NCBI RefSeq assembly: GCF_988243305.1
Contig: NZ_OZ547136.1
DNA: 64,000 nt
Direction: 5' to 3' (one strand)
Made by a program: the position numbers and the translations under genes. Below are positions 20,947-60,144 of this stretch, piece after piece. The notes below the pieces were generated by a model. It was not told the origin of the DNA. It did no database searches and was given only the letters and a program-made list of their open reading frames with translations. How positions within the stretch are numbered: the first letter of the stretch is position 1; every line of letters starts with the position of its first letter.

Positions 20947-20979
20947 GCCAGCCTCGCTAAAAGGCTGGCAACTATTTTA
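20947..20979 (+). terminator. Hairpin plus T-tract after yjfJ (possible attenuator or terminator)
   Basis: Stem GCCAGCCT/AGGCTGGC followed by AACTATTTT. Confidence 0.45.
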
Positions 20980-20989
20980 AGGATAAAAT

Positions 20990-21649: not shown

Positions 21650-21666
21650 TTACAAGGACGTTTACA

Positions 21667-22065
21667 ATGCATATACTGGATTCACTTCTTGCCTTTAGCG
21701 CCTATTTTTTTATTGGCGTGGCTATGGTGATTATTTTTCTTTTTATCTATTCTAAAATTACACCGCACAACGAATGGCAGTTAATCAAAAACAATAATAC
21801 CGCGGCTTCACTGGCGTTCAGTGGTACATTGTTAGGTTACGTTATCCCATTATCCAGTGCGGCAATCAATGCGGTGAGTATTCCAGACTATTTCGCCTGG
21901 GGCGGGATTGCACTGGTGATTCAGTTACTCGTTTTTGCTGGTGTCAGACTTTATATGCCCGCATTAAGCGAAAAAATTATTAATCACAATACCGCAGCAG
22001 GAATGTTTATGGGAACCGCCGCGCTGGCTGGCGGTATTTTTAACGCAGCTTGTATGACATGGTAA
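21667..22065 (+). CDS. yjfL: DUF350 inner membrane protein YjfL
   Basis: 132-aa form from ATG 21667 (MHILDSLLAF...); multiple TM helices. Confidence 0.85.
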   Translation: MHILDSLLAFSAYFFIGVAMVIIFLFIYSKITPHNEWQLIKNNNTAASLAFSGTLLGYVIPLSSAAINAVSIPDYFAWGGIALVIQLLVFAGVRLYMPALSEKIINHNTAAGMFMGTAALAGGIFNAACMTW

Positions 22066-22074
22066 TGGACGATC

Positions 22075-22713: not shown

Positions 22714-22715
22714 TC

Positions 22716-23879: not shown

Positions 23880-23962
23880 GAATGTTTTAGCAATCTCTTT
23901 CTGTCAGGAATCCATGGCAGTGACCATACTAAAGGTGACTGCCATTGATGGAGGGAGACACA

Positions 23963-25588: not shown

Positions 25589-25645
25589 GCGTATACGACT
25601 GATGCGACGCTGGTTTCGATTAACTCAATGAAATATGTGAAAATT

Positions 25646-25683
25646 GTAGGCCGGACAAGGCGCTCGCGCCGCATCCGGCATTG
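25646..25683. repeat. REP palindromic unit
   Basis: GTAGGCCGGACAAGGCGCTCGCGCCGCATCCGGCA between aidB and yjfN. Confidence 0.75.
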
Positions 25684-25704
25684 TTCATTTGCTGTAGATG
25701 ACAC

Positions 25705-25980
25705 TCATGCATACAGGATCGCCTGTACGCGCCAGTTATCAGGCTGCTGGTCTTCGTACATGGTAATAATGCGGTACCATGACGCACCTTGTTCATCGGC
25801 CTTTAACGCCACGATACGTTCCACGTCCTGCGGATCCCCTGAAATATTGCTAACTGAGATCTGACCTATTTCATTCAGGCCCGTCACGCAGTCAGCACTG
25901 GCGAATTCTGCAGACTGTGCCGTGGCGCTCGCAGGATAAGTCACTAATTGCAGCGAGGGTGAGGCAAGTAATTGTTTCAT
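25705..25980 (-). CDS. yjfN: DUF1471 (YhcN-family) small periplasmic protein YjfN
   Basis: 91-aa form from ATG 25980 (MKQLLASPSLQL...); signal peptide. Confidence 0.85.
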   Translation of the reverse strand: MKQLLASPSLQLVTYPASATAQSAEFASADCVTGLNEIGQISVSNISGDPQDVERIVALKADEQGASWYRIITMYEDQQPDNWRVQAILYA

Positions 25981-26128
25981 CGTCAGCTCCATTTTTCGTT
26001 TCCCCACATGTTGCAGGGCATTCCATCGCGGTAATAAACGCCCAGGCTTCCAGCCGGTAATTTATTGTGCACAGGTAAACGCATAGGGACGCAAAGCAAT
26101 GTAAAGCTGACTATGTAAGTTGTCTGAT

Positions 26129-26458
26129 TTATTTACGGTACAAAATGGCTTGTGAATACCACTGTCCTGTCACGATGGTTTCGTCCACCATGACGACAAC
26201 GTAATAATCAGCTTTTGCAGCGACAGCTTTCGCTCTGATTTCTGCTAAAGCGTCATCCGGAGAACCCCGAACCATCGTGCTTACGCTACCTATTCGCTGT
26301 AACCCTTGCGTCTGGTCGCGGCGAATCTCTTGCGGATGGTTCGTTACTGGCGGTGCTGGCTGTGGCGTACCTTGCAGTGCGCTACAGGCACTTAACATCA
26401 ACACCAATAATAAACTGGCAAACCGGTAAATAACGCTATTACGTTTCCTGCTAACCAT
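26129..26458 (-). CDS. bsmA: Biofilm stress and motility lipoprotein BsmA (YjfO)
   Basis: 109-aa form from ATG 26458 (MVSRKRNSVIYRFASLLLVLMLSAC...); lipobox LSAC. Confidence 0.85.
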   Translation of the reverse strand: MVSRKRNSVIYRFASLLLVLMLSACSALQGTPQPAPPVTNHPQEIRRDQTQGLQRIGSVSTMVRGSPDDALAEIRAKAVAAKADYYVVVMVDETIVTGQWYSQAILYRK

Positions 26459-26639
26459 AGTGTAGTGCCTTATTAATTTAACTTTGGGGGAATGTTCCCG
26501 AATTGTTACCTGGTACGCGATTTTCGAATGAAAACGTGACGAAAGCGTAACCCACATCTCAACATTATGAACTAATACCGCCAGCAGAAACTTGTGCTAA
26601 GGATTTCTTCATGTCATACCAGACAAAAAGGAGAGACAG

Positions 26640-27389
26640 ATGATTGAAATAGAATCACGCGAGCTGGCAGATATTCCCGTTCTTCATGCTTATCCTGTCG
26701 GGCAAAAAGATACCCCGTTACCGTGCGTAATTTTTTATCACGGCTTTACTTCATCCAGCCTGGTGTATAGCTATTTTGCCGTTGCGCTGGCGCAGGCTGG
26801 TTTGCGGGTGATCATGCCGGATGCGCCCGATCACGGTAGCCGTTTTAGTGGCGACGCAGCGCGGCGGTTAAATCAATTCTGGCAAATCTTGCTACAAAGT
26901 ATGCAGGAATTCACTACTTTACGTGCGGCAATAGCCGAAGAAAACTGGCTGCTTGATGACCGTCTGGCAGTCGGTGGCGCGTCGATGGGCGCGATGACGG
27001 CACTGGGAATTACCGCTCGCCACCCCACGGTGAAATGTACCGCCAGCATGATGGGATCGGGCTATTTTACATCGCTCGCCCGTTCACTGTTTCCACCGCT
27101 GATACCTGAAACGGCAGCACAGCAGAATGAATTCAATAACATTATCGCGCCGCTGGCAGAGTGGGAAGCGACAAACCACCTGGAACAACTTGGGGACAGA
27201 CCTCTACTGCTGTGGCATGGCCTCGACGATGACGTTGTGCCTGCCGACGAATCACTACGTTTGCAGCAGGCCTTAAGCGAGACGGGACGGGATAAACTGC
27301 TAACCTGTTCATGGCAGCCAGGCGTGCGTCACCGCATTACGCCTGAGGCGTTAGATGCTGCCGTGACATTTTTCCGCCAGCATCTTTAA
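26640..27389 (+). CDS. yjfP: Alpha/beta-hydrolase esterase YjfP
   Basis: 249 aa; nucleophile motif GASMG. Confidence 0.9.
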
Positions 27390-43827: not shown

Positions 43828-44026
43828 TATTTAACCTTCCTGAGACGCATTTTCATGACAACCACGGAGGAGGTCATTTACTACAAACGATCGTTTATAA
43901 CGATCGATATACTCTATTAACTTGAGAAACACAACGCAAGGGGACAACCCGGGTATGGCTGCGTTTGCATAGTGTTTTCATGGAGTTAAAAATCTGTAAC
44001 AATAGCCTGGTACATCACCACCGGGT

Positions 44027-44899
44027 TCAGAAGAAAATCCAGTTCCATACCGCGCGGGCAACAGAGACCACCGAGTCACGGACGGCTCGCAGAACCGTAC
44101 GAGCCACAGAGGCAACACAGACGCTCTCCGCTGTGTCAAATATCCGGTCCACCGCACCGGTAAACTGTTCACGGGCCTGAGAGCGGACAGACTCCGTGCG
44201 CAGTTCGTCCTGCAGGCGGGTCATCAGGGGGCTGGCGGCATGGTCGGGAAGCGCTGTCATGAGCGCACTGACCAGCGTATCCAGTTCCCAGCCGGTGCAG
44301 GCCGATACGGCCACAACCGGATGTACGGGCCGGAACAGCCGGAATACCGCCTCCGTTTTCTCACGAATGTTCTGTGCCTGTGCGGGAGAAGGCTGAATGC
44401 CGGCCATATCCCATTCATGGCAGGGCTCCGTTTTGTCGGCCTGCGTCACCACAAACAGCACCTGCTGATGTCCCCGGTGCAGGATGTGTCGCCAGAAATA
44501 CTCATCCACAGACAGGGCACGGTCATCGGCTTTAATCAGCCACAGTACCAGGTCAAGTTCAGGCAGAATGTCACGGTACAGGGCTTCATACTCTGCATCC
44601 CTGTCCCGGCTCTCGCCCACCCCGGGCAGGTCAGTGATAATCATGCTGTGACCGTGGCCACTCAGACGGAAGCGCCGCACTTCCCGGGTGCCGGCGTGAA
44701 CATCACTGACCGGGGTGACCTCCCCCTGAAACAGCGCATTACAGAGTGAGGATTTACCGGCCCCGCTTTTACCCATAATGCCAATCACGGGTTCGTGACT
44801 GGTGAGTTTGCGCAGATGTTCCTGGATGTGACGGGAAAGTGAGTAAGGCAGGGAGGAGAGCGGTTTTTCAATTGCCTCAATGGCATCAGACGGATTCAT
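44027..44899 (-). CDS. YfjP/YeeP/YkfA-family GTPase of CP4-like islands
   Basis: ATG 44899 (MNPSDAIEAIEKPLSS...); P-loop GIMGKSGAGKSS, DLPG; possible upstream GTG start at 44962. Confidence 0.8.
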   Translation of the reverse strand: MNPSDAIEAIEKPLSSLPYSLSRHIQEHLRKLTSHEPVIGIMGKSGAGKSSLCNALFQGEVTPVSDVHAGTREVRRFRLSGHGHSMIITDLPGVGESRDRDAEYEALYRDILPELDLVLWLIKADDRALSVDEYFWRHILHRGHQQVLFVVTQADKTEPCHEWDMAGIQPSPAQAQNIREKTEAVFRLFRPVHPVVAVSACTGWELDTLVSALMTALPDHAASPLMTRLQDELRTESVRSQAREQFTGAVDRIFDTAESVCVASVARTVLRAVRDSVVSVARAVWNWIFF

Positions 44900-44983
44900 A
44901 CATGTATTCCCGGTGAAAAAAGACAAAACCCCCGCACACCGGAAAGGTGGCGGGGGACTCACAGAGATAATATATGTCTGAAA

Positions 44984-45901
44984 TTATCTGGAATGTCGGT
45001 ACCTTTTATACTCTTCAACAATCAGGTCATGCAGCATTTCGCCGGTACTGAGTCTTCTGACCCTCGATAATTCTTTGAGCTGCGCCCTGGTTTCTGCGTC
45101 AAGAAAAAACTGTACATTGACTTTATCTTCCTGCATTTTTTTGTACTTGCGCTGCGCCTTGGCCTTATTGAAACTGTTTCTGAAATTTTTTATATCGTCA
45201 GGTGAGGTGAGTGTACAGGTAACCCATATGTCAAATGAAAGGTGAATTGCGTGGTAAATATCAGCAGAACCAGGAAAACTGGCCAGTTTTTCCAGTGCAA
45301 TATTTTTTCCCTTCAAATAATTCCATGTCCATATGCATTCATGTTCGTTCTCCGGGAGGAGGTAACTGAAAGGACTCTTTGATTTAAATGCCCGTATCCA
45401 TCTGTCTTTGGTCTGGATTATCCACTCATCCCGCAAATTCTTATCAGAAAGAATATCGAGAACTCTGAGTATTTGTCTGAACTGTGTCGATGAGTCCGAC
45501 GGGAAGGCATTCCCTTCTAAATACTCTTCTTTAAGATACAGTTTATTCTTTTGAAGCAAGTCTGCACTTATTTTTGCCCTGTTATTCTGGATAAACTGCA
45601 TCAACAGATACCAGGAAAATAAGCATGCGCGTTCACTGCCCGCGATCCAGGATATTTTTTCCAGGGGGACCAGGAAGGCCTGGGCCTTCAGACGCATACC
45701 AGAAATGATTTGTTCAAGTTCAAAATCTGAAAGTGTGATGTTCAGATTTTCTCTGTTTTTTTTTATGTAAGCGATAAAACGTTCCGGGGGATCATAAACA
45801 TTAAGGGGCAGTACGGAGATATTACGCTCTCCAAGATAATAAGAGTAATACGCATTTGTTCTTTCATTCATAACCTTATCCGACAAAATTTTCTGAACCA
45901 T
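44984..45901 (-). CDS. AT-rich hypothetical protein with C-terminal ribbon-helix-helix-like segment
   Basis: 305-aa ORF; RBS GGAGAAAGGGG; C-terminus VQFFLDAETRAQLKELSRVRRLSTGEMLHDLIVEEYKRY resembles an RHH DNA-binding fold; base composition visibly lower in GC than neighbours. Confidence 0.7.
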   Translation of the reverse strand: MVQKILSDKVMNERTNAYYSYYLGERNISVLPLNVYDPPERFIAYIKKNRENLNITLSDFELEQIISGMRLKAQAFLVPLEKISWIAGSERACLFSWYLLMQFIQNNRAKISADLLQKNKLYLKEEYLEGNAFPSDSSTQFRQILRVLDILSDKNLRDEWIIQTKDRWIRAFKSKSPFSYLLPENEHECIWTWNYLKGKNIALEKLASFPGSADIYHAIHLSFDIWVTCTLTSPDDIKNFRNSFNKAKAQRKYKKMQEDKVNVQFFLDAETRAQLKELSRVRRLSTGEMLHDLIVEEYKRYRHSR

Positions 45902-47101
45902 CCCCTTTCTCCGGTTGCTTAAAAATTAAACACAACAAGGTGATAATAACATGATAAAAAGAAGTTTATAATGGTATATTAAGGTGGTCAATAAAAAGGC
46001 AATCTGCGCACTGTATAGTCATTATGACAGGAAATGCAGGAGGAAGGGAAGGTAACCGGCTTCGTTATGCTGACAGGAATACCTGTTATCATGGAAGTGC
46101 ATTCATGTGGCCGACGTAGCTTAAGAGGATGGAAGAGTGGAGACTGCAGACAGGGGGTATTGAAAGGTAAACATGTTTCGCCCGCCAGCTGCACCGGAGG
46201 CCAGCATCACTTTTTTTACGTTGTAACCTGGTATGCATTCCGGCTTTGATGATTACAGTCAGAGGGCAGCAGACTGACGTTATTTAACCGGACAGCAAAA
46301 TTATGGACACTGAAATATCGTCCGTTAATACCTCGTTTGTCGGTGTGGTATTCCCTGTATTACCGGCGTCACCGATAAAGAGAGTTATAAACGCCAGAAA
46401 GGTACCTGCTTTATGCCGGGGAACACTTATGGAAAATGAAGTCTGAAAAGGAGCACAATGAAAAGAGACGTGTCCCGTAAATATAACGAATCATCGCAGG
46501 ATATGCATTATCAGGTGATACCAGAGTGCATTAAACTGCCGTCACGGATAAGAATATACAACATTTCTGATAACAAAACATCATAACGTGTTTCAGATAT
46601 GTTCCGGCATCAGTCTGACGGATATTATTTCCCGGGAAAACAAACCTGCTACTGTGACGGTTAACTGTATCTGCATAAATTATTTATGATGAAAGAACAG
46701 TATTACGGATTCAAATATCATCCTGTTTGCATTCAGGCGGACATTCCCGGATGCCGAAAAGAATATCCTGCAGGCTGAGTGAGTCTCTTCCACAGTGCCG
46801 GGATCGCTGTCGCCACGTACATATTGTCACCAGGATGGGTATGTACCGCAGCATGCCATTTCTGGTGAATAACCGCACCTGCACATTCAGTCTGCTGAGA
46901 ACCTGGCGTGCATCGGGCTGTAAAGAACATCCCTGTCCGTGGCTCCTCTGGTGGTGTTGCCTGCTCAGTAATGACAGGATGCCCTTAAGACGCCCGTCAT
47001 GGCTCAGTATGATGACGACGAACACGCTCTGCAGGTGAGCATGCGGGGCCGGGAGCATCATCATTTCCGTATTTTGTCACACCTTCCGGAAGCAACCGGC
47101 A

Positions 47102-47719
47102 TCAGTTGCGGTTATCGTCAACCGTTGTGCGGTATGCCAGGAGCACGTACTGATCCATCAGATCCGTCAGTGCTGCGCTCTGCCTCTGACGGTTGATGAT
47201 CCATTCCTCCAGCTCTTTTTCTGATTTCCGTTTCAGGTTCTCTTTCCAGTCTTCAAGGCTGTTTCCGGTCATTAAATCAAGCCAGCAAAGCCAGACCAGT
47301 TTGAGGCGCAACTCCGTGCCACCAAACTGACGGAAGAGGCTAATCAGTTTATTTGCCAGAGAACGCTGCCTCAGACGTTCACATTCAGACAGGAGAATGC
47401 CTTCCAGCATCGGATGATGAACCAGCAGATGTTCACTGGTGCATAAATTCACTATCAGATCATCATCCAGGGGCGGCGTGGCCCGTTTGTCAGGGCCATA
47501 AATCAGCCGGTGCAGGCTCTGGGGTACGATGGCAATCTCCGGTTTTTCACCATTGAATGACACCCACCCGGGCGTCAGATTATGGAAGTAGTAGATATTC
47601 GGATGACACACGCCCCAGGATACGGCGTGCCGGGTGAAGCCGGTCAGCCATTTCTGGTAGCTTTCGTGGAGCAGTTCGTAACGGGTCTGATACTGTTGTT
47701 TCATTTTCATATTCCTCAC
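47102..47719 (-). CDS. Hypothetical protein (205 aa) downstream of alpA-like gene
   Basis: Uninterrupted ORF; no family recognised from sequence alone. Confidence 0.6.
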   Translation of the reverse strand: MRNMKMKQQYQTRYELLHESYQKWLTGFTRHAVSWGVCHPNIYYFHNLTPGWVSFNGEKPEIAIVPQSLHRLIYGPDKRATPPLDDDLIVNLCTSEHLLVHHPMLEGILLSECERLRQRSLANKLISLFRQFGGTELRLKLVWLCWLDLMTGNSLEDWKENLKRKSEKELEEWIINRQRQSAALTDLMDQYVLLAYRTTVDDNRN

Positions 47720-47798
47720 GGGGATATAACAGGCAGCAGAATGCCGCCGGCAGGCCGGGGATTACGTCTGCTGCGGGTGAACGGATAACGGTCAGAAA

Positions 47799-48005
47799 TT
47801 ACGGACGGGACTGTGCAATACGCGCCTGCAGCCAGGCTTCCACTTCACTTTTCAGCCATCGGGAACTGCGGCCCAGCTTGATGGGGGCCGGAAAGGCCCC
47901 ATCCCTGATGAGTTTGTAAAACCACTTATCGGTCAGGCCAGTCAGTTGAGTGATAAACGCCATGTCGACCATCTGGTCATCCATCAGTGAAACTGGGGTG
48001 GTCAT
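47799..48005 (-). CDS. AlpA-family prophage transcriptional regulator (excisionase-like HTH)
   Basis: 68-aa form from ATG 48005 after RBS GGAGG; MTTPVSLMDDQMVDMAFITQLTGLTDKWFYKLIRDGAFPAPIKLGRSSRWLKSEVEAWL. Confidence 0.8.
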   Translation of the reverse strand: MTTPVSLMDDQMVDMAFITQLTGLTDKWFYKLIRDGAFPAPIKLGRSSRWLKSEVEAWLQARIAQSRP

Positions 48006-48911
48006 GAGAATGTTCCTCCGGATGTTGTTAATCTCAACCGGCGTTGGTGATGAAAACAACGCACCACCTTCACCGGCATAACAACCGGGGAGAAACGTAA
48101 AAAATAATCGGGAATGTGACCGCCAGGAGATAAACGGGGGGATTGCGGTGGCTGAGCCGTACCGGTATGTCGGGTGGTTGTTGCGAAACGATGCTTCCGC
48201 ACGCGATAAAGGAGGGAGGACTTTCGTGAGACAAGGGGAAAACTAGCGTTCTGATAATTGCAGAGTTGTTTTTGAAGGCGGTTGTGGTATATCAGCCTGT
48301 GACCTGTGGGCAGGCGACAGTTATCACTGGTGGGATAATACTGTCTGATTGGTATTATAAATATATAAGAGAGATCAAACACATGAGATCAAACACATGA
48401 GTTCATATATGTGAAATAAATCTGTGAGTGTGATCAGCAGACCAGTCTACCCAGTAGCAACAGATTGCGTTGTACTCACAGGGTTATCCCTGATAACTGG
48501 CGTATAACCTGCGTACATAAAACGTACCTGCAATGCACCTGAACAGAGTGCATTAAGCATCCGCCTGAGCGGTAAACGTATCCGATCTGGTGAGTGACAG
48601 TCTGAGAGCATTCTCAGTAATCGCCCCCTTGTATCCTGGAAATTGGTTAAGATAACAGCGATTAGATTTGGCAAGGTGTATGCAGCCAGCAGCTTAACAT
48701 CTCAGCTAACTGGCTGGTTACCTTCAGGTTGTCGCAATGGCATCGGACATCCGGTGTCGGATAACTAAACGTAGCGTTAAGGCGATATTGCTGAGAGACC
48801 GGTTAAGTGGTTGCACGGGAGTAATGAGTTTGGGGAGGGCACCAGAATGCCAGGTTGGTGCGGTATGCTGACAGCATCCTGTTAACCGCAGCATAAAGTA
48901 ATGAGAGGCTA

Positions 48912-49124
48912 ATGGAAGTTAAAACCAAAGAAGACTGGCTGTATCAGCTCCGTCGTTGTTCATCCCGGGAGACACTGGAAAAAGTGATTTCCCACACACG
49001 TTATAAACTTACCCCTGCGGAGCTGGAAGCCTTCAACTCTGCGGTCGATCACCGGCTGGCAGAACTGACAATGAACAAGCTTTACGATCGCGTGCCGGCT
49101 TCAGTCTGGAAATATGTCATCTGA
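48912..49124 (+). CDS. Small hypothetical protein (70 aa)
   Basis: ORF with upstream GAGAGG; no family recognised. Confidence 0.4.
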
Positions 49125-49756
49125 GCGTTCGGTAATCACAACGGCATCGCGCCAGGTGTTATCCGCTTTGTGATTCTTATTGGCTCTTCTCAGGTTATTA
49201 AAAGCTGAATATGTTCCTGTTGTCGGGAACCAGGATAATGTCGGGAACGTTAAGCTGTATAACGACAACAAAGAATTCGAAATCAAAAGGGAATGGTGTA
49301 CGGAGGTGTGGACGGTAATGGGCCGATTTTCGGGCATTACCGACCTCTGCTGAGGTTTTCTCGTATTTCTGGGGATCCGGTGAGTTACTGTCACTGTCTG
49401 GCACAGCAAGCGCAGAGGCGGCGGGGCGCTTTGCTCCGCTGATTCCGGATAATTCCTCCCCTGTAACCTACCGCAACAGTACAAATACACTGACGCCTGA
49501 AACGACAGCCAGAATCAGCACAAGCCACAATCCCTGCACACCGTTTTGCGTATCACCATAACGCCTCCTCACAGCCTTACCCGTAACCGGTTTTTTACAT
49601 TAAAAAAACAACGCTGGGAATTCAATCGTCAGTCCGGAGACGACAGTCGGGTTATCACAGAGTGCCTGAGACAGTGTCCTGCCGGAGGTCACCTCAGGGA
49701 CTCTGCACATTTTTTACAGCGTGGCTATTCCGTATGAACCATACGGAGATTTAACC

Positions 49757-50326
49757 ATGACCTACAAATACAACCCCTTCTGGCAGCAACGTATTCGTGA
49801 GACGGTGCGGCACGCACTGAATGTTCATCCCCGCCTGACGGCATTGCGGGTTGACCTGCGTCTCCCGGATGTACCGGCAGCAACGGACGCAGCTGTGATA
49901 TCCCGCTTCATCAATGCCCTGAAAGCCCGAATCGACGCTTACCAGAAACGTAAGCATCGGGAAGGTAAACGCGTGCATCCCACAACCCTGCATTACGTCT
50001 GGGCCCGGGAGTTTGGGGAGTGCAAAGGTAAAAAACACTATCACCTGCTGCTGCTGGTCAACCGGGATACCTGGTGTCGTGCCGGTGATTACCGCGCTCC
50101 GGGGTCACTGGCCGGGATGATTAAACAGGCCTGGTGCAGTGCCCTGGGAGTGGATGCCGGACGTTATGACACGCTGGCACATTTTCCGGTCAGGCCGGCG
50201 GTGTGGCTGGAACGCGATGATGACACCGGCTTTCAGCAGGTGCTGGAGCGTGCTGACTATCTGGCGAAGGAGAGTACCAAAGCTTACGGCACCGGTGAGC
50301 GCAACTTTGGCTGCAGTCGTGGCTGA
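49757..50326 (+). CDS. YagK/YfjJ-family (inovirus Gp2-like) protein
   Basis: ATG 49757 after RBS GGAGAT (MTYKYNPFWQQRIRETVRHALN...); family typical of CP4-like islands. Confidence 0.7.
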   Translation: MTYKYNPFWQQRIRETVRHALNVHPRLTALRVDLRLPDVPAATDAAVISRFINALKARIDAYQKRKHREGKRVHPTTLHYVWAREFGECKGKKHYHLLLLVNRDTWCRAGDYRAPGSLAGMIKQAWCSALGVDAGRYDTLAHFPVRPAVWLERDDDTGFQQVLERADYLAKESTKAYGTGERNFGCSRG

Positions 50327-50491
50327 GCCCGACAGACGACTTATCTGACTTCAGTGTGATGACGTGTTCACAGCGACCACACTGATTTTCCCTTCTGAGA
50401 CTGAACTGAAAACCGCCATTCACACCTGACCACGCTGCCCGTACCGGGACGGCTGTTGCCTGCGTGTCGTCTGGCGGTAAGGAACCACACT

Positions 50492-50911
50492 ATGTACGCA
50501 AAATCTTTTCTCGCACTTGATGGCAACGGACGTCTGACCGGTGCCCGTACCGCACAGACCGCACCTTATGCTTACTACACCTGCCACCTTTGCGGCAGTG
50601 CACTCAGATACCACCCGCAGCACGACACGGAACGTCCCTGGTTTGAACACACTGACGACGGGCTGACGGAGCACGCGCAGCAATGTCCTTATGTCAGGCC
50701 GGAACGCAGAGAAATACGGTTGATTAAACGTCTGCAGCAATTCGTCCCGGATGCCTTACCCGTGGTACGTAAAGCCAGCTGGTACTGCAGGCAATGTCAC
50801 CACGATTATTATGGGGAGCAGTACTGCACACACTGCCAGACCGGGCGCTTCAGTGAGGACGGGGAGCAGAATGAACGGTATAAAAACGGGGCTGGGGATC
50901 ACGCCGGGTGA
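50492..50911 (+). CDS. Cys/His-rich zinc-ribbon protein, first half of a tandem pair (second half 50871..51179 in another frame)
   Basis: ATG 50492 after RBS AAGGAA; CHLCGSALRYH...WFEHTD repeated as CLSCHGRLIL...WFEHDL in the downstream frame; C-terminus runs into the IS66 end. Confidence 0.55.
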   Translation: MYAKSFLALDGNGRLTGARTAQTAPYAYYTCHLCGSALRYHPQHDTERPWFEHTDDGLTEHAQQCPYVRPERREIRLIKRLQQFVPDALPVVRKASWYCRQCHHDYYGEQYCTHCQTGRFSEDGEQNERYKNGAGDHAG

Positions 50912-51094
50912 GCACATTATCAGTGCCGACTCTGCGCTCAGCAGAAATATCCGGCATTGTTTCTGCCTTTCCTGTCATGGCCGGTTGATTCTGCAGACAG
51001 ATGCTCAGGGGGCGTGGTTTGAGCACGATTTACATGCCCTGAGTGAGCAACAGAAGGGTAAGCGTGCAGCAAGAACCGTATTGACGGGGATGTG

Positions 51095-52633
51095 TTATTC
51101 AGTCGGCAGTGCTACGCGCCAGGGGAGCAGTTCGCCGACCCGGTTTATCGGCCAGTCGGCTATGACGTCAAGGACATAGCGGAGGTAGCTTTCTGGCTCC
51201 ACTCCGTTCAGTTTGCACGTCCCGATCAGGCTGTACAGCAGCGCTCCCCGCTCTCCTCCATGATCCGAACCGAAGAACAGGTAGTTTTTGCGGCCCAGAC
51301 TGACCATCCGCAACGCATTTTCAGCGATGTTATTGTCCGCCTCAGCCCAGCCATCATCTGCATAGTACGTCAGCGCCGGCCACTGGTTCAGGGCGTATGC
51401 GAACGCTTTCGCCAGTTCTGAGTGTCGCGACAGGGTTTTCATCTTTTCACGCAGCCAGCTTTCCAGGGATTTCAGCAGCGGTTTCGTTTTCAACTGACGT
51501 TCGGCAAGGCGCTGTTCCGCCGTCATTCCCCTTATCTCTGCCTCGATGGCGTACAGTTCGCCGATCCGTTTCAGCGCTTCCTCCGTCAGGGCTGACGGGG
51601 TGCGAACGTGCACATCGTGGATTTTACGGCGGGCGTGAGCCCAACAGGCGGCTTCCGTTATCCGGCCATCCCGGTACAGCTCGTTGAACCCGGCGTATGC
51701 ATCCGCCTGCAGTACACCACTGAACCCCGCAAGATGGGTCTGCGGATGGATGCCTTTTCTGTCCGGGCTGTAAGCGAACCACACCGCCGGCGCCAGCGTT
51801 GACCCGGCGTTACGGTCGTCACGAACATACGCCCACAACCGCTCGGTCTTCGTTTTCTTATTGCCTGGCAACAGCACCGGGACAGGCGTGTCATCAACAT
51901 GGAGCTTACCGTCAGTCAGCACATAGCCATGAAGCGCCTCTTCCAGCGGAGACAGCTGCCGGCAGCATGCATCCACCCAGCCCGACAGCAGTGAACGGCT
52001 CAGCTCCACACCTTGCCGGCCGTATATTTCTGACTGGCGATACAGCGGGGTGTGCTCTGCATACTTCGAGGTCAGCACGCGGGCCAGCAGCCCCGGTCCG
52101 GCGATACCCCGCTCGATGGGCCGCGAAGGTGCAGGTGCCTGCACGATGGCATCGCACTGAGTACAGGCATGTTTTTCCCGTACCGTCCGGATAACCCGGA
52201 AGGCGCTACGCATCAACTCCAGCTGTTCGGCGATATCCTCGCCCAGATAGCTCAGTGAACCGCCGCAGTTCGGGCAGCACGGCGCCGCAGGCAACAGTCG
52301 CTTTTCGTCACGGGGTAGTGATTCAGGGAACGGCTTACGGGTGCGGGTCTGACGCAACGGACGCTGTACTGCCGGGTCATACACCCTACCAGTCAGCGTA
52401 TCGCTCTCTTTCTGAAGCCGGTTCAGATCGGCTTCCATTTGTGCGATACGGCGGGAGACTTTTTCGGAACGACTGCCGAAGTTCATCCGGCGGAGTTTAT
52501 CCAGCTGCGCCTGCAGATGGTCTATTTCGCGCTCCCGGTTGCTCAGCTTTTCCTGCAGGGCGTGGATCAGCGCTTCCTGTTCGGCCAGGCGCTGTTTCAG
52601 CAGGAAAATGTCGTCAGAAGAGATGTCGTTCAT
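51095..52633 (-). CDS. IS66-family transposase TnpC (full length)
   Basis: About 512 aa from [14 protein letters not shown]... (ORF extends to 52669); CxxC zinc motifs and DDE region. Confidence 0.85.
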
Positions 52634-53730
52634 ACATCGTGTATTTTTCGCCGGGCATGGACCCAGCACGCAACTTCTGTCTGTGCACCACCTTCACGTT
52701 TGGCACTGAACAGCCGATCGTAACCGCTGAATGCATCCGCCTGCAGGATACCCCGGAAGGGACGAAGGTGTTGTACCGGATGTTTTCCCTGCCTGTCTGG
52801 TGAGTAGGCGAACCAGACCGCCGGTGGCTCTGATGAGCCCGCATTCCGGTCATCCCGGACATACGTCCAGATGCGTCCTGTTTTTGCCTTTTTTCTGCCC
52901 GGTGTCAGCACTTTTACCGGTGTGTCGTCAGTGTGAACCTTGCGGGTGTTCATCACGTAACGGTACAGGGCATCATTCAGCGGAGTCATTAACTGGCAGC
53001 ACGCGTCAACCCAGTTGGAGATTAATGCACGGCTCAGTTCGGCACCCTGTCGGGCAAAGATTTCACTCTGACGATACAGTGGCAGGTGTTCGCAGTATTT
53101 TCCCGTTAACACGCGGGCAAGTAATCCGGAGCCCGCGATGCCGCGCGCTATCGGGCGGGACGGCGCTGGCGCTTCAACTATACAGTCACATTTTGTACAG
53201 GCTTTTTTTACCCGAACAGTGCGGATCACTTTCAGGGCGCTACTCACCAGTTCCAGCTGCTCAGCACTGACTTCACCCAGATAATCCAGCTCACTGCCAC
53301 ACTCCGGGCAACAACTTTCTTCAGGCTCCAGGCGGTGTATTTCACGGGGAAGATGTGCTGGTAACGGACGACGATGACGTGACTGTCGCAACTGGCGGGG
53401 AACCTGCGGGTCATCCTCACGCCCACTGTAACGATCGCTTTCCTGTTCGCGTTGTTTCAGTTGGGCCTCAGCCTGTTCAACCTCACGCTGCAGTTTTTCA
53501 GAACGGGTACCGAACAGCATCCGGCGCAGTTTTTCTATCTGGGCCCTCAGATATTCTATTTCCCGCTCCTCCTCTTCGATCTTTTCTTCGGCACGTGCCA
53601 GTGCAGAGCGCAGGAAGGCCTCCGTCTCTTCAACCAGACTCAGTTGCAGATCTCTCTGACGGAGGGCTTCAGCCTGCTCAGAGAGCAGCCTTTCCAGCTC
53701 AGTGATACGAATGAGGTATTTCCGACTCAT
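52630..53730 (-). CDS. IS66-family transposase TnpC, C-terminally truncated copy
   Basis: 366 aa [19 protein letters not shown]... ending at the conserved ARRKIHDV motif. Confidence 0.8.
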
Positions 53731-53760
53731 GACCGTTTTTATAATCCGGCCATGACATTT

Positions 53761-54111
53761 TTACAACATTGTCAGTGCGTTAAGACGGGATGTTTTTGGC
53801 TGACGCCAGTCCAGCTTATCGAGGAGCATTGCCAGCTGCGAGCGGGTAATGGATACCTTACCGTCACGCACCGCAGGCCAGATAAACAGGCCTTCCTCCA
53901 GGCGTTTGGTGAACAGGCACAGACCATCAGCATCAGCCCAGAGGATTTTAATCATGTCACTCCGTCGGCCACGGAAGATGAACAGGTGACCGGAGAAGGG
54001 GTTCTCATCCAGCACATGTTGTACCTGTTCCCCCAGACCGTTGAAGGATTTACGCATATCAGTAACGCCGGCAACCAGCGAGATTCGAGTGTCTGATGGG
54101 AGCGAGATCAT
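53761..54111 (-). CDS. IS66 accessory protein TnpB (Orf2)
   Basis: 116 aa MISLPSDTRISLVAGVTDMRKSFNGL... Confidence 0.85.
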   Translation of the reverse strand: MISLPSDTRISLVAGVTDMRKSFNGLGEQVQHVLDENPFSGHLFIFRGRRSDMIKILWADADGLCLFTKRLEEGLFIWPAVRDGKVSITRSQLAMLLDKLDWRQPKTSRLNALTML

Positions 54112-54533
54112 CGCCCCCTCCCGGTCAGTTCACGGATCAACACCGTGAGCAGCTCTGGTGAAGGATTTTCCAGCGTCATGTTACCGTGGCGGAACTCAAC
54201 TTTACAGGAACTGGCACTGACTGTGCTTTGTGAAGGAGTGGATAAAAGCGGAGTAAGAGCCGCCATAGGCTCTTTCTGCTCATCAGGCGTTATCTCAACA
54301 GGTAATAATTCAACGCCAGCGTCAGAAGAGGTTGTTACCGGAAGACGCCGCGATATACGCCCTTCGTTCTGCCAGAGCCTGAGCCATTTGAACAGGAGGT
54401 TATCATTGATATCGTGTTCCCTGGCAATACGGGCAACAGAGGCTCCTGGTTGCAAAGCCAGTTTAACCATTTGAAGTTTAAACTCATTTGAAAATGTTCT
54501 GCGGGGTTCTGCGGATAATATTTTCTGTTCCAT
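54108..54533 (-). CDS. IS66 accessory protein TnpA (Orf1)
   Basis: 141 aa; HTH region; 4-nt overlap with tnpB. Confidence 0.85.
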   Translation of the reverse strand: MEQKILSAEPRRTFSNEFKLQMVKLALQPGASVARIAREHDINDNLLFKWLRLWQNEGRISRRLPVTTSSDAGVELLPVEITPDEQKEPMAALTPLLSTPSQSTVSASSCKVEFRHGNMTLENPSPELLTVLIRELTGRGR

Positions 54534-55194
54534 AACAGGTGTCCACTAGTTGATGAAAAGGTGGGCACCTACGTTACCAATACTGGCTTAATGGCTACAT
54601 ACGGCGGTCAGTTTACGCTTACCATGTATCTGGCGAGTGAAGCTTTATGTCGTGTTCTGGCGTGTCCTGTGTTAGTTAGAACACGCCATCGATGGTCAGC
54701 AGGTTCATATTGCACCAGAGCGGATACAGCGTGGTGTTATGTCAGGGCTGCGCTGTTTACGTGAACACGTGGCGTATGGCCCCGCTTCCTGGCCGCTGCT
54801 GGGCATGGATCACGGCGCGACAAAGGGGCGACTACCTGGCAGCATGTGTCCAGCCGGTTCACAATCTGGTGAAGGTTCCTTACGCTCATGGGCCATACTG
54901 ATAATTCACCAGGCCATCATTTCCAGAGGAAGACGCCGTTTGCGTAGCGTGACAGTGTCGGACTCTTCAGGGCTGTGGGTAATCAGTTCCGGGGCAAGAT
55001 AGTCGCAGAGGGTTACGCAGAGAATAGTAACTGGACACTGGATCGATCAACCGATCCTTAACTGAGCGGCATGACAGCTTTCTGATGGTTTTTTTTTGAT
55101 AATCTTCACATTGTGCTTCTTTTCTGTTGGATAATCTTTGTACTTGATGGTGTACTAGGTATCCCATTATGCAGTTAAGTGAAGGTGATTAAAA

Positions 55195-56112
55195 ATGCAA
55201 TGTGAATTTAAAGGGGTCATATCAGCATTACCCACTCCTTATGACCAATCCCAGCAAACCGATATGGAGAGTCTTCGAAAACTGATCCGTTTTAATATCG
55301 AACAAAATATTAAGGGATTGTATGTTGGAGGCTCTACTGGAGAAGCATTTCTTCAGAATGTTGCAGAGCGAGAAAAAATTCTTGAAACAGTAGCCGATGA
55401 ATCAGATGGAAGACTGACACTTATAGCGCATGTGGGCGGAATCAGTACGGCAGAAAGCGAGGTACTTGCAAAAGCTGCAAAAAAATACGGATATCATGCT
55501 ATATCTGCTGTTACTCCATTTTATTATCCTTTTTCATTTGAAGAGCATTGTATCCATTACAGGAAGATTATTGATTCTGCAGATGGACTTCCGATGGTAG
55601 TTTATAATATACCGGCTCTTAGCGGAGTGCGTTTTTCTTTAGATCAGATAAATGAGCTTGTCACAATACCCAGGGTTTGTGCATTAAAACAGACATCCGG
55701 TGATTTATTCCAGATGGAACAAATCAAAAGGAATCATCCAGAGCTTGTGTTATATAATGGTTACGATGAAATATTTGCATCAGGGTTAATTGCAGGTGCA
55801 GATGGGGGAATCGGTAGTACATATAATATAATGGGGTGGCGTTATCTTGAAATATTTGAAGCAGTCAAAAACAATGATGTGATTAAGGCGAAGGAAATGC
55901 AAGTAGCCTGTAACCAGGTTATTGACACTCTTATTCAGAGTGGTGTCCTGGCAGGTATAAAAACTCTTCTTTACTATATGGGGATTATAAATACTCCTGT
56001 ATGCAGAAGTCCTTTTTCTCCGGTAAAGGAAAAGAATCTGGATGTATTATCAAAACTTGCAGAGCGACTGTTCGAAGAACATGACAGAAACAAAAAAATG
56101 AAAATAATCTGA
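55195..56112 (+). CDS. N-acetylneuraminate lyase paralogue (NanA-like, DHDPS family)
   Basis: 305 aa; GGSTGE and Schiff-base Lys region (ALKQTSGDL) resemble NanA. Confidence 0.8.
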
Positions 56113-56145
56113 ATAATTGCAAGATTGTTATATAGGTGAAAATGA

Positions 56146-57021
56146 ATGATAACACTGGCTGTTGATATAGGAGGAACGAAAATTTCAGCGGCGTTGATAT
56201 CTGATGACGGTTCATTTTTGCTGAAAAAACAGATATCAACACCTCATGAAAGATGTCCTGACGAAATGACAGGGGCTTTACGTCTACTGGTTTCTGAAAT
56301 GAAGGGAACAGCGGAGCGATTTGCAGTAGCATCAACAGGGATTATTAATAATGGAGTATTGACAGCTCTGAATCCAGACAATCTTGGAGGGCTGAAAGAG
56401 TATCCTCTGAAAAATATAATGGAAGATATAACTGGTTTAAATGGAAGTGTGATAAATGATGCCCAGGCAGCCGCATGGGCAGAATATACAGTTTTGCCGA
56501 AAGAAATTTGTGATATGGTTTTTATAACCGTTTCTACGGGGGTTGGAGGGGGAATTGTAGTTAACAGAAAATTATTAACAGGTGTTTCTGGATTAGCCGG
56601 ACATGTTGGGCATATATTGTCCGGAGTAACGGATACAGAATGTGGATGTGGTCGTCGGGGATGCGTTGAAGCGGTTTCATCTGGTCGGGCCATCATGGGG
56701 GCAGCAAAAAATAAACTTGCAGGATATAGCACCAAATATATTTTTGAATTAGCGAGACAGGGATATAAGGAAGCAGAATTTTTGACAGAGCGTTCTGCCA
56801 GTACTATTGCTGAATTAATAGTAAGTTTAAAATTACTGCTTGATTGTCAGGTTGTTGTTGTCGGAGGAAGTGTTGGACTTGCTGATGGGTATGTTCAGAA
56901 AGTGTCGAAACATCTTTCCATATATTCTGAAATTTGTAATGTAATGCTGTTTCCGGCATATTTCAGAAGTGACTCTGGTCTTATTGGTGCAACTCTTTGG
57001 GACCGGGATTGTATTACTTAA
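56146..57021 (+). CDS. ROK-family sugar kinase (NanK-like)
   Basis: 291 aa; N-terminal DIGGTK and ROK zinc motif CGCGRRGC. Confidence 0.8.
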   Translation: MITLAVDIGGTKISAALISDDGSFLLKKQISTPHERCPDEMTGALRLLVSEMKGTAERFAVASTGIINNGVLTALNPDNLGGLKEYPLKNIMEDITGLNGSVINDAQAAAWAEYTVLPKEICDMVFITVSTGVGGGIVVNRKLLTGVSGLAGHVGHILSGVTDTECGCGRRGCVEAVSSGRAIMGAAKNKLAGYSTKYIFELARQGYKEAEFLTERSASTIAELIVSLKLLLDCQVVVVGGSVGLADGYVQKVSKHLSIYSEICNVMLFPAYFRSDSGLIGATLWDRDCIT

Positions 57022-57069
57022 AGTAATACTCCAGTGTATTATAAATCCGCTATTATTGTGAGGTTTAAT

Positions 57070-58536
57070 ATGGACTCCTGTATTCAGAAAAAGCAGGTTT
57101 GGTATAAGCATCTTTCACCCAGACAGTGGAAGATATTCGGTGCGGCATGGACAGGTTATTTACTTGATGGTTTTGATTTCGTTCTGATATCTCTGGTTCT
57201 TACAGAGGTTCAGCATGAATTCGGCTTGACGACAATAGAAGCGGCAAGCCTTATTTCCGCTGCTTTTATTTCTCGATGGTTTGGGGGGCTTGCTATTGGC
57301 GCTTTATCGGACAAGATGGGGCGCAGGATGGCAATGGTTTTAAGTATAGTGCTATTCTCTCTCGGAACCCTTGCCTGTGGTCTGGCTCCTGGATATGCAG
57401 TGATGTTTATTGCTCGCATTGTTATTGGGCTTGGTATGGCAGGTGAATATGGCTCAAGTGTAACATATGTTATCGAAAGCTGGCCTGTTCATCTCAGAAA
57501 CAAGGCAAGTGGTTTTTTAATTTCTGGATTTTCTATTGGGGGAGGTTTAGCTGCACAGGTTTATAGCATTGTAGTACCACTATGGGGCTGGCGTTCTCTT
57601 TTCTTTGTCGGCATGCTTCCAATATTATTTGCTTTTTATCTTCGCAAGAATCTTCCGGAGTCTGATGACTGGCAAAAAAGGCAACAAGAGAATAAACCCG
57701 TCAGAACAATGGTGGATATTCTGTACAGAGAAAAGAATAAATACATAAATATTCTTCTGTCTTGTATTGCATTTGCATGTCTATATGTTTGTTTTTCAGG
57801 CGTCACTGCAAACGCTGCTTTAATCACAGTTATGGCATTGTGCTGTGCGGCTGTTTTTATCAGTTTTATATATCAGGGTATGGGGAAAAGATGGCCAACA
57901 GGCATTATGTTGATGCTTGTGGTTATGTTCTGTTTCCTCTACGGATGGCCACTGCAGGCTTTTCTTCCTACATGGCTTAAGGTTGATATGCAGTATTCAC
58001 CAGAAACTGTTGCTCTCATATTTATGCTGGCAGGTTTTGGCTCTGCAGCTGGAAGTTGTATAGGTGGTTTTATGGGGGACTGGCTTGGAACCCGAAAAGC
58101 ATATGTTATATCACTTCTTATCGGTCAGCTTGTTATTATCCCCGTTTTTCTTGTGGACCGGGACTATGTATGGTTACTTGGCCTTCTAATCTTTACTCAG
58201 CAGGTTTTTGGTCAGGGGATTGGTGCTCTGGTGCCGAAAATAATCAGTGGTTATTTTAATGTGGAGCAGCGTGCGGCAGGACTGGGGTTTATTTATAATG
58301 TAGGTTCACTTGGTGGAGCATGTGCGCCTATTCTTGGTGCAGTTGTTGCGTCTCATACAAGTCTTGGTACAGCAATGTGTTCTCTTGCTTTTATCTTAAC
58401 ATTTGTTGTTCTTGTCCTTATTGGTTTTGATATGCCATCACGTGTACAGAGATGGATCCATCCAGAAGCTGCGCTTGAATATGATACTGTCGATGGAAAA
58501 CCTTTTTATGGAGCAAGAAAAAAGAATGTTGCATAA
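57070..58536 (+). CDS. MFS sialic-acid-type transporter (NanT-like)
   Basis: ATG 57070 ([37 protein letters not shown]...); about 12 TM helices. Confidence 0.8.
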
Positions 58537-58566
58537 GAATAACGGATGCTATCAGGGAATAAAAAA

Positions 58567-59376
58567 ATGATTCATTACAGGGAGAATATATATTCTCTTG
58601 ATAATTATGAGCGTTATATAACTGACAGTTCGCTATTTGAGAATACTGGCGATGGCATAATATATACAGGTATTGTGCCCCTTATTACAGTTGTTGAGCC
58701 TGTTGTATCTAATCAACATAGTGTGCTGATTATACCTGGAGGTGGATACAGGAGGATTGTTTATGAAAGAGAGGGACTTGATGTTGGCAGATGGATAGCA
58801 GGTCAGGGATATACGGCATTTATTCTTTCTTACAGAATGCCCTCCGTTAATGGTTATTATTCCTTTGCAGATGCGAAGAATGCCCTGAACTTTATTTCTT
58901 ACTGGGCCGGAATGTCGGAGAGAACATTTAAGAGTGTTGGATGTATGGGGTTTTCGGCAGGTGGTCATCTTGCTGGATATATTACTCATCTCCATTATGA
59001 GGAAGAGACTTCTGTGCGTCCTGACTGGATGGCTCTGATATATCCAGTTATATCTCTTGACAGGAGTATTGCTCATCAGGGATGCCGGAAACGTCTTCTG
59101 GATGCAGGTGAAAGTGAATATTCAGCCAGTCTTGAAAATAGTGTTACAGAGTATATGCCACCAGTCTTTATTGTGCATGCAACAGATGATAAGGATGTTC
59201 CAGTTATTCATTCTCTGAGATATTTTAACTCTATTCGGGATAAGGGACATCATGCAGAAGCTCATTTTTTTGATAAGGGAGGTCATGGATTTGGTGTATC
59301 CGGAAAAAATGGATATCCGATAGAAAAATGGCAAAGCCTGCTTCTGGAATGGCTTGCGGAACATAAGTTTTATTGA
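58567..59376 (+). CDS. Alpha/beta-hydrolase esterase (copy 1)
   Basis: RBS AGGGA upstream of ATG 58567; IIPGGGY and nucleophile GFSAGGH motifs. Confidence 0.75.
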   Translation: MIHYRENIYSLDNYERYITDSSLFENTGDGIIYTGIVPLITVVEPVVSNQHSVLIIPGGGYRRIVYEREGLDVGRWIAGQGYTAFILSYRMPSVNGYYSFADAKNALNFISYWAGMSERTFKSVGCMGFSAGGHLAGYITHLHYEEETSVRPDWMALIYPVISLDRSIAHQGCRKRLLDAGESEYSASLENSVTEYMPPVFIVHATDDKDVPVIHSLRYFNSIRDKGHHAEAHFFDKGGHGFGVSGKNGYPIEKWQSLLLEWLAEHKFY

Positions 59377-59421
59377 GAAATCAAATTACAAGTGATAAAT
59401 ATATTTAATGATGAGGCATTT

Positions 59422-60132
59422 ATGAAAAAATATTATCCACTATTAACTGTAATTCTTCTTGGTTTACCTTTGTGCTCTCAGGCATTAACTCTTAATCTAC
59501 GTGGGGGATACAGAAGCGCCAGTCACGCTTATGAAACGTTGATTCAGGTTAGTCAGGGGTGGAATAATGGTTGGTGGGCAAGTTTTGAGTCAAACACCTG
59601 GAATACAATTCACAACAATGAAAATGAATTGTTTGCACTCAATTATAATAAAATAGATATAAATAAAACATATAAAATAGATGACAAATGGGCTCTAATC
59701 CCAGGGATTCAGACACAATGGATGTCAGCAGGAAGTCAGTATAACCCTTATCTGAAAATTTCGTATCAGGCAACGCCAGATCTTAATCTGGCCTTACGCT
59801 ATCGCTATGACTGGAAAGCTTTCCGACAGACGGATTTAGATGGCAACAGGGCGCGTAATGATCAGCATCAGTTTGATGGTTATGTGACATACAAAATTAA
59901 TGATTCATGGTTGTTTGCATGGCAGACCACGGTATATACGAAGGTTAATAATTTCAAATATGGGAATCATAAAAAAACAGCAACTGAAAATGCATTTGTT
60001 CTGCAATATAAAATGTCACCGGTGTTCACCCCATATATAGAATATGATTACTTGGATAAACAAGGGGTGTATAAGGGGAAAGATAATAAACATGAAAATA
60101 GTTACCGTGTCGGTGTTCTGATTAATTTTTAA
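59422..60132 (+). CDS. KdgM/NanC-family outer-membrane channel
   Basis: ATG 59422 (MKKYYPLLTVILLGLPLCSQA...); signal peptide; C-terminal beta-strand ending in F. Confidence 0.8.
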   Translation: MKKYYPLLTVILLGLPLCSQALTLNLRGGYRSASHAYETLIQVSQGWNNGWWASFESNTWNTIHNNENELFALNYNKIDINKTYKIDDKWALIPGIQTQWMSAGSQYNPYLKISYQATPDLNLALRYRYDWKAFRQTDLDGNRARNDQHQFDGYVTYKINDSWLFAWQTTVYTKVNNFKYGNHKKTATENAFVLQYKMSPVFTPYIEYDYLDKQGVYKGKDNKHENSYRVGVLINF

Positions 60133-60144
60133 AAGGTGATTACA

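Follow-up and report, generated by a model that had tools for sequence, protein, structure and literature searches.

Genes and features at the locus

The window analysed here is a 64-kb stretch of DNA, in which a composite of two IS66-family elements was located on the minus strand between positions 51058 and 54622 (3,565 bp), with one outer end contributed by each parent element. The left end, tnpA, tnpB and 366 tnpC codons of an IS682-like element are followed by the complete tnpC and right end of a second IS66-family element. All open reading frames of an earlier note on this DNA (tnpA, tnpB, a 366-aa tnpC fragment, then a full-length tnpC) were recovered on this strand, and their identities were confirmed by Pfam and NCBIfam matches. 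Each exact end of the composite lies one base outside the region given in that note (51059-54621). The features are listed below by coordinate.

50871..51057, plus strand: second DUF7828/zinc-ribbon gene, cut after codon 62 of 141 (Pfam DUF7828 to profile position 62 of 87)
51058..51087, minus strand: right terminal inverted repeat, ISEc8/ISEc22-like, ...GTTCTTGCTGCACGCTTAC (element ends at 51058)
51095..52633, minus strand: complete tnpC, 512 aa, MNDISSDD..., ISEc8/ISEc22-like (ATG at 52633, alignment to intact copies)
52630..53730, minus strand: truncated tnpC, first 366 codons, IS682-like, ending ...ARRKIHDV (alignment, Pfam)
52632..52634, minus strand: breakpoint of the proposed deletion, 3-nt microhomology TAT (three-way alignment with both intact parents)
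53761..54111, minus strand: tnpB, 116 aa, intact, IS682-like (Pfam TnpB_IS66, E 7.8e-35)
54108..54533, minus strand: tnpA, 141 aa, intact, IS682-like (Pfam HTH_Tnp_1, E 1.4e-15)
54593..54622, minus strand: left terminal inverted repeat, IS682-like, GTAAGCGTAAACTGACCGCCGTATGTAGCC... (element starts at 54622)
54679..55077, minus strand: remnant of an IS4-family transposase gene, degenerate N-terminal part (Pfam Nterm_IS4, E 1.8e-8, one frame)
54622 and 51058: outer ends of the composite, GTAAGCGTAAAC... and the complement of GTAAGCGTGCAG..., from different parent elements

The left part was compared with complete copies labelled IS682 by PGAP (e.g., L003). Homology extended from 54622 to 52632 (reference nt 1 to ~1988 of 2533) at 97.2% DNA identity, a value that covers the surviving 79% of IS682 and refers to PGAP-labelled copies, not to the ISfinder sequence. 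The left repeat was identical to the first bases of the complete L003 copy (2501-), an element with the 8-bp duplication TCTTTCTC on either side. The left repeat, tnpA, tnpB and 366 tnpC codons are shared with IS682, and the TnpC fragment has 97% protein identity to it; the last ~545 bp of IS682 (171 tnpC codons and the right inverted repeat) and a target duplication are absent here. The IS682-like part is thus not a complete copy, and it appears not to be a mobile one. NCBIfam models were matched by tnpA (IS66-like TnpA NF047595, 86.6 bits, cut-off 74), tnpB (IS66_TnpB, 114 bits) and the tnpC fragment (transpos_IS66, 265 bits, cut-off 180), and the CFT073 equivalent of the first gene is called tnpA by PGAP. 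Compared with full-length TnpC (L003 and L004), the fragment is without its last 171 of 537 residues, including the rear of the DDE domain, and its Pfam match to DDE_Tnp_IS66 ends at profile position 163 of 284. In the PGAP annotation it is a pseudogene that lacks its C-terminus.

Homology to the second element extended from 52634 to 51058, with 99.4% identity to a complete 2442-bp copy from its nt 866 onward. No difference was seen between the right repeat and the right end of the complete 2442-bp element on plasmid pMTY14664 (L002, 1636-4077); an 8-bp duplication, CACTGTAT, flanks that element. Complete copies of 2442 bp carried by E. coli and E. albertii plasmids, with the transposase annotated only as "IS66 family transposase", were 99.4-99.7% identical to the second element over tnpC and the right repeat. 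Its TnpC has 99% amino acid identity to the intact plasmid copies and CFT073, and 94% to the PGAP "ISEc8" TnpC. The protein contains, in full, each of the four Pfam domains of an IS66 transposase (LZ_Tnp_IS66, zf-IS66, DDE_Tnp_IS66 and DDE_Tnp_IS66_C). The leucine zipper, zinc finger and DDE_Tnp_IS66 of an IS66 TnpC are all present; DDE_Tnp_IS66 was matched over positions 1-283 of 284, with DDE_Tnp_IS66_C in addition (E 3e-106), and transpos_IS66 scored 466 bits (cut-off 180).

An isoform, by ISfinder convention, has at least 95% DNA identity over the length of the named element. PGAP-labelled ISEc8 copies reached ~92% over tnpC and the right end, below that threshold, and PGAP-labelled ISEc22 reached ~93.8%; identities of 92-94% argue for a relative of the elements bearing these PGAP labels and not an isoform. 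The left inverted repeat, tnpA and tnpB of ISEc8/ISEc22 (nt 1 to ~865) are gone from the copy here, in agreement with the earlier statement that the second copy has neither gene and supplies tnpC alone. The claim that the second tnpC is clearly divergent was likewise upheld, given that the fragment and the second TnpC are 63% identical as proteins, an identity that points to clearly different elements.

The gene order tnpA, tnpB, tnpC that is typical of IS66 is present in the IS682-like part, with tnpC truncated, and terminal inverted repeats start with GTAAGCG (GTAAGCG... at 54622 and ...CGCTTAC at 51058). Both composite ends open with GTAAGCGT, and agreement between them is limited to the 8 terminal bases and CCGTAT (positions 19-24).

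The junction between the two elements

In the three-way alignment, intact IS682 reads ...CACGATGTAT|ACATCAGC and the intact second element reads ...CGGGCTTAT|GAACGAC. At the junction, IS682 stops at ~nt 1988 and the second element takes over at nt 866-868; TAT is all that they have in common. The breakpoint is interior to both elements and non-homologous, falling at tnpC codon 366 in one and 1 nt before the tnpC ATG in the other. The two reading frames share 4 nt, ATGA, which hold both the stop codon of the fragment and the ATG of the second tnpC. An overlap of about 40 nt had been reported previously; it arose from a longest-ORF GTG start at 52669, and the real start is the ATG at 52633.

The joint had also been placed at the conserved motif ARRKIHDV. 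The fragment does end exactly after this motif, which recurs at residues 334-341 of the second TnpC, and homologous recombination between both tnpC genes through a conserved 14-residue stretch could be imagined from this. The partner breakpoint, however, is 1 nt upstream of the second tnpC ATG, ~1 kb from its ARRKIHDV motif, and the product consists of a truncated gene and then a complete one instead of an in-register hybrid. The alignment refutes such an exchange, to which we assign a negligible chance. That the joint falls at this motif is coincidental, because a hybrid tnpC in register and of normal length would have been the outcome of recombination through it.

The breakpoint coincides with the 3' foot of a tnpB-tnpC hairpin in the intact second element (ATAAGCCCG/CGGGCTTAT; DNA dG -9.2 kcal/mol, z -4.55), which is a plausible pause or slippage site. 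Promoters and terminators predicted over 50900-54800 were in no excess over shuffled sequence, and none was found at the junction.

Just before the breakpoint the composite reads AAATAC, as does the second element, while intact IS682 copies read AAATCC. A longer patchy-homology exchange, at which this A could hint, was considered and rejected; it would rest on one base, in an element that differs by 3%, and this is indistinguishable from ordinary divergence.

Independent insertion sites and a single origin

At the right end, the element overwrites the 3' end of the zinc-ribbon gene, as the earlier note had stated. The last 8 bp before the element (51050-51057) are CCTTCTGT on the minus strand. 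Strain A2 (L006) carries an intact 141-aa zinc-ribbon gene with an empty site, ...GGCCG CCTTCTGT TGCGCAC..., in which CCTTCTGT occurs once; the 8 bp at 51050-51057 would be the surviving copy of the second insertion's target duplication. At the left end, the IS4-family remnant (a "transposase domain-containing protein" pseudogene in PGAP) is the insertion target of the IS682-like element. It is uninterrupted in L015, and in strain 2015C-3121 the uninterrupted IS4 site loses homology at 54621-54623.

A check on terminal inverted repeats and 8-bp duplications, suggested previously, fixed the ends at 54622 and 51058 and found no 8-bp target duplication around the composite (left flank GATACATG, right flank CCTTCTGT). 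Its absence would be expected for the remnant of two insertions. Taken with the separate empty site for each outer end, it argues for two insertions followed by one illegitimate deletion.

The same flanks bear on whether a hybrid IS, composed of left end, TnpA and TnpB from IS682 and of TnpC and right end from the second element, transposed here as a unit. Such an element would have three intact ORFs (tnpA, tnpB and the second tnpC), an ATGA overlap that would permit translational coupling, and ends that both begin GTAAGCGT. Against this, there is no target duplication, the flanks are unrelated sequences each with its own empty site, and one copy per genome across 658 genomes gives no sign of mobility. 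Copies differ from one another at clustered, mostly non-synonymous positions, and one difference private to the window, G264E, lies in the conserved KTKTGRLW block. IS679 transposition reportedly requires tnpA, tnpB and tnpC. We consider transposition of a hybrid unit very unlikely.

Nested insertion, which the earlier note offered beside illegitimate recombination, would place the ISEc8/ISEc22-like element in the IS682-like tnpC, with later deletions removing its left third and the IS682 3' remainder. IS66 nesting has a precedent in pMTY14664, where the same second element lies inside an ISEc23-like tnpC with the 8-bp duplication CACTGTAT, and tandem IS66 relatives are present in O157:H7. Here, nesting requires at least two additional deletions with precise outcomes. 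The junction is away from the second element's end and has no inverted repeat, and the right end of that element meets zinc-ribbon sequence, not IS682, exactly at an otherwise uninterrupted site. No IS682 3' remainder follows the second element's right end (...CACGCTTAC), and no IS682 3' fragment was found anywhere in the window. We regard nesting as improbable; of the two earlier suggestions, illegitimate recombination is the one supported by a non-homologous breakpoint sharing TAT only.

Of 5,426 complete E. coli genomes, 658 carried the identical junction, essentially once each (659 records), among them CFT073, ATCC 25922, Nissle 1917 and ST131 strains. Its sequence was identical in four independent loci and the same in CFT073, BR1220 and TUM11356, and the left flank around it was constant (689 genomes, one place each). 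The arrangement is already known, in that RefSeq (PGAP) annotates the CFT073 locus likewise, as a tnpC pseudogene plus tnpC, as it does in ~660 other complete genomes. IS copies are classic misassembly sites, and a collapsed or chimeric repeat had been named as a possible refutation; an identical junction in 658 independently finished genomes from many laboratories, with several independent assemblies of CFT073 and ATCC 25922, makes an artefact scarcely credible. A reference IS with exactly this organisation had been named as another, and no multi-copy one exists in those genomes; the arrangement occurs at one copy per genome with constant flanks. In the papers found, IS682 and ISEc8 are named in IS inventories only.

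A further ~380 genomes cover at least 80% of the composite without the junction, and those sampled were arranged otherwise. O157:H7 strains have a 5'-truncated ISEc8 and then an IS682-like element, the opposite order, and one plasmid (H182) has two IS66-family elements side by side. The only full-length IS682-like copy found at this left flank is in strain cM8a, where a CDI immunity gene lies at the right flank. It was rejected as an ancestor, since the right flank is unrelated and there is no target duplication, and it is read as a probable later IS682 x IS682 homologous exchange.

The pre-deletion state was seen in no genome. A synthetic query joining the lost 3' part of the second zinc-ribbon gene, CCTTCTGT and the second element's left end matched 0 of 5,426 genomes. 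No ancestor was found among GTDB species representatives using the 20-mer beside the IS682 left end, which matched two contaminated MAG contigs with the same chimera and, by chance, one Mycolicibacter genome.

Proposed origin and comparison with known systems

Two independent IS66 insertions followed by one illegitimate microhomology deletion very probably account for the composite. The IS682-like element would have entered the IS4-family remnant beside a sialic-acid (nan-like) cluster, and the ISEc8/ISEc22-like element would have entered a CP4-like module of the island, in its second DUF7828/zinc-ribbon gene. Both would have stood in the same orientation. Two pre-deletion junctions are predicted: the IS682 right end + GATACATG + GTGGAAACC..., and the second zinc-ribbon gene's 3' part + CCTTCTGT + GTAAGCGTACAGCC. 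A single RecA-independent, microhomology-mediated deletion at TAT (slipped mispairing or end joining) would then have taken out the final ~545 bp of the IS682-like copy, all DNA between the two insertions, the zinc-ribbon gene's 3' part, and ~865 bp at the start of the second element (left end, tnpA and tnpB). The resulting 3,565-bp chimera would be immobile, passed on vertically and moved horizontally with the island. The anatomy of the composite, its breakpoint, the separate insertion sites, the single origin and the copy number of one are shown directly. Because no pre-deletion genome was found, we infer in what order the events took place and how much DNA was lost, as we do the deletion mechanism; with only 3 nt, the microhomology is short and does not point to a particular enzymatic route.

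As a scar in a genomic island of E. coli type, the composite is ordinary; it is fixed and of single origin, and not an active or unusual transposon. There is a small chance that the chimera is still active, through trans effects on other IS66 copies or low-frequency movement as a hybrid IS. If so, the IS682 promoter could drive TnpA, TnpB, the 366-aa TnpC fragment and an ATGA-coupled heterologous TnpC; the fragment (leucine zipper, zinc finger and partial DDE) might be a trans-inhibitor of host IS66 copies, and the full TnpC a trans-activator of host IS66-family copies. Beyond bookkeeping, the scar matters little. The exact breakpoint could be used as a PCR or k-mer marker for the island lineage in ST73, ST131 and related strains, and for annotation, 52630-53730 should be a pseudogene and the second tnpC should start at 52633.

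The composite marks the seam between the nan-like sialic-acid module and the CP4-like module (Ag43, YfjI, Hha, Gp2 and zinc-ribbon genes). In E. coli pathogenicity islands such as the CFT073 pheV island, with their IS-bounded deletions and mosaic seams, a degenerate IS cluster likewise lies at the join of two modules. Endpoints at IS ends would indicate a transposase-mediated event, and in-register endpoints a homologous one. The seam described here differs in that both endpoints fall within IS copies, at a microhomology of 3 nt, and are neither at IS ends nor in register.

Organization of the IS66-family composite

Four consecutive open reading frames on the minus strand were found in an IS66-family remnant of 3,565 bp (54622-51058) by ORF listing and Pfam/NCBIfam searches.

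Open reading frames of the composite
54533-54108, minus strand, IS66-type TnpA, 141 aa
54111-53761, minus strand, IS66-type TnpB, 116 aa
53730-52630, minus strand, truncated TnpC, 366 aa
52669-51095, minus strand, complete TnpC, 524 aa counted from the GTG start

The truncated TnpC matched the Pfam domains LZ_Tnp_IS66, zf-IS66 and DDE_Tnp_IS66 (the last only up to profile position 163 of 284), and all four domains were present in the complete TnpC; the two proteins were 63% identical across their shared part. The ends are also IS66-type, with GTAAGCGTAAAC... starting at 54622 and ...GCACGCTTAC finishing at 51058. The ORFs, domains and ends together confirmed the truncated-tnpC/full-tnpC arrangement described in the earlier note, which had the place right (51059-54621) but stopped one base short of the true end on each side. 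The reading-frame overlap of about 40 nt proposed there was an ORF-caller artefact, IS682 sequence read in another frame. Alignment with intact copies put the second tnpC start at the ATG at 52633 (MNDISSDD..., 512 aa), so that the TGA of the fragment and the ATG of the second gene overlap as ATGA; apart from overlap size, that description was accurate.

The left part (54622-52632) was 97.2% identical to complete 2,533-bp elements, named IS682 here after their PGAP transposase label ('IS66-like element IS682 family'). The right part (52634-51058) was 99.4-99.7% identical to complete 2,442-bp elements from E. coli and E. albertii plasmids, hereafter the second element. An IS682 reference copy (L003, 2501-5033) is flanked by the 8-bp duplication TCTTTCTC, and a plasmid copy of the second element (L002, 1636-4077) by the duplication CACTGTAT.

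Junction and outer flanks

In a three-way alignment, the IS682 parent reads ...AAAAATCCACGATGTAT|ACATCAGC, the second-element parent ...AAAATACGGGCTTAT|GAACGACATC and the window ...AAAAATACACGATGTATGAACGACATC, and TAT (52634-52632) is the only sequence common to both parents at the joint. The joint falls at about nt 1988 of 2533 in IS682 (tnpC codon 366 of 537) and at nt 866-868 of 2442 in the second element, 1 nt upstream of the tnpC ATG. This breakpoint lies within both elements, far out of register. A transposase-made joint, expected at an IS end, is thereby ruled out, and so is homologous exchange through a shared 14-residue TnpC stretch, which would yield a hybrid gene of normal length. 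Of the mechanisms suggested earlier, illegitimate recombination is supported, given an internal, out-of-register joint with only TAT in common, and nested insertion is not. The spacer between tnpB and tnpC of the intact second element carries a stable hairpin (ATAAGCCCG-loop-CGGGCTTAT; DNA dG -9.2 kcal/mol, z -4.55) whose 3' foot coincides with the breakpoint, a position that would fit slipped mispairing at a fork paused there.

IS66 relatives do nest in one another's tnpC, since on plasmid pMTY14664_IncFII (L002, NZ_CP135651.1, 1277-5862) a complete second element, with its 8-bp duplication, splits the tnpC of an ISEc23-like element, which IS421 interrupts as well.

No target duplication was found around the composite (left flank GATACATG, right flank CCTTCTGT). 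On the right the composite abuts the second DUF7828/zinc-ribbon gene, which is interrupted after codon 62 of 141; in strain A2 this gene is intact and CCTTCTGT is present once, exactly at the interruption point. The left flank is a decayed N-terminal remnant of the IS4 family, which continues uninterrupted in strain 2015C-3121, where homology to the window ends at 54621-54623. Past that site this strain carries a methylase, a DUF1281 gene and a primase fragment, all absent from the window, and the chimera is therefore the seam joining the nan-like module to the CP4-like module (Ag43, YfjI, Hha, Gp2 and zinc-ribbon genes). Its outer ends are two separate insertions.

In the related CP4-like island of strain A2 (L006), a complete ISEc23 (IS66 family; 2923-5320), in the same orientation as the window elements, lies ~440 bp beyond where the intact zinc-ribbon gene 2 ends, suggesting that this neighbourhood is a recurrent target of IS66-family elements.

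The simplest history is one in which two IS66-family insertions in the same orientation would have been followed by a single deletion, taking ~545 bp of IS682, ~865 bp of the second element and all DNA between. A pre-deletion state was not found in any genome. Next to the same left flank, strain cM8a (NZ_CM176589.1, 9573-12106) has an IS682-like element of full length, though frameshifted, with no target duplication and an unrelated right side (a CDI immunity gene, then a hemagglutinin-repeat gene); the chimera probably recombined here with another IS682 copy by homology, as a later, secondary rearrangement.

Distribution, variation and genomic background

A 400-bp probe spanning the joint was covered in 659 records from 658 of 5,426 complete E. 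coli genomes, at about one copy each, and the left flank was found once per genome in 689. Carriers include CFT073, ATCC 25922, Nissle 1917, ABU 83972, JJ1887 and other O25b:H4-ST131 strains, and the junction sequence is identical among CFT073, BR1220 and TUM11356. This recurrence of an identical junction indicates a single origin and rules out misassembly, a concern of the earlier note. Other arrangements are present in the sampled genomes that cover the composite without having the junction, e.g., in O157:H7, where ISEc8 precedes an IS682-like element.

In E. coli HSP60 and UPEC69, a 3.9-kb query (window 50900-54800, composite and short flanks) matched in two pieces over 6.3 kb, within which the IS21-family ISEc10 (istA/istB) is annotated; the scar region apparently keeps gaining IS insertions. 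Two MAG contigs, labelled Segatella copri (L011) and Bacillota (L012), were 99.6-99.8% identical to the Escherichia island; both have the IS682-like left end and L011 the junction, and they are almost certainly binning contamination.

No sign of chimera activity was seen (single copy per genome), and a promoter/terminator scan returned nothing above chance. Chimera copies differ at few positions; the differences fall in clusters and most are non-synonymous. A G264E change private to the window TnpC falls in the KTKTGRLW block, which every other IS66 transposase compared, the IS682-like one included, conserves. Relative to CFT073 or BR1220, the window shows six differences in 17 nt of the second tnpC (51828-51844; composite nt 2779-2795) and three in 7 nt of tnpA (54448-54454; composite nt 168-174), and the truncated tnpC of BR1220 has an extra cluster of 24 over ~150 nt. 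Such clustering points to patches of gene conversion from other IS66 copies rather than to point mutation.

Window regions 20000-39300 and 44000-64000 were compared. For the flanking core genes (aidB, ula operon, yjfC), the best identity to any of the 5,426 genomes is ~96.4%, whereas the island part with the chimera and nan-like cluster matches CFT073 at 99.6%. The host may thus belong to a divergent Escherichia lineage, one that gained the island by horizontal transfer with the scar already inside. In BR1220 the CP4-like module starts beside setC, in a different chromosomal context, and the first ~32.8 kb of the window has no match to that region. Three tandem glyVXY-like tRNA-Gly(GCC) genes near the window start (1926-2345) are unrelated to the chimera.

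Relation to annotated elements

PGAP annotates exactly the same order in CFT073: tnpA, tnpB, tnpC 'incomplete, missing C-terminus', tnpC and a zinc-ribbon pseudogene. The locus is an ordinary, already-annotated remnant in which two IS66-family elements were fused by a microhomology deletion. The second of these is called ISEc8/ISEc22-like because it is ~92% identical to PGAP-labelled ISEc8 and ~93.8% identical to ISEc22.
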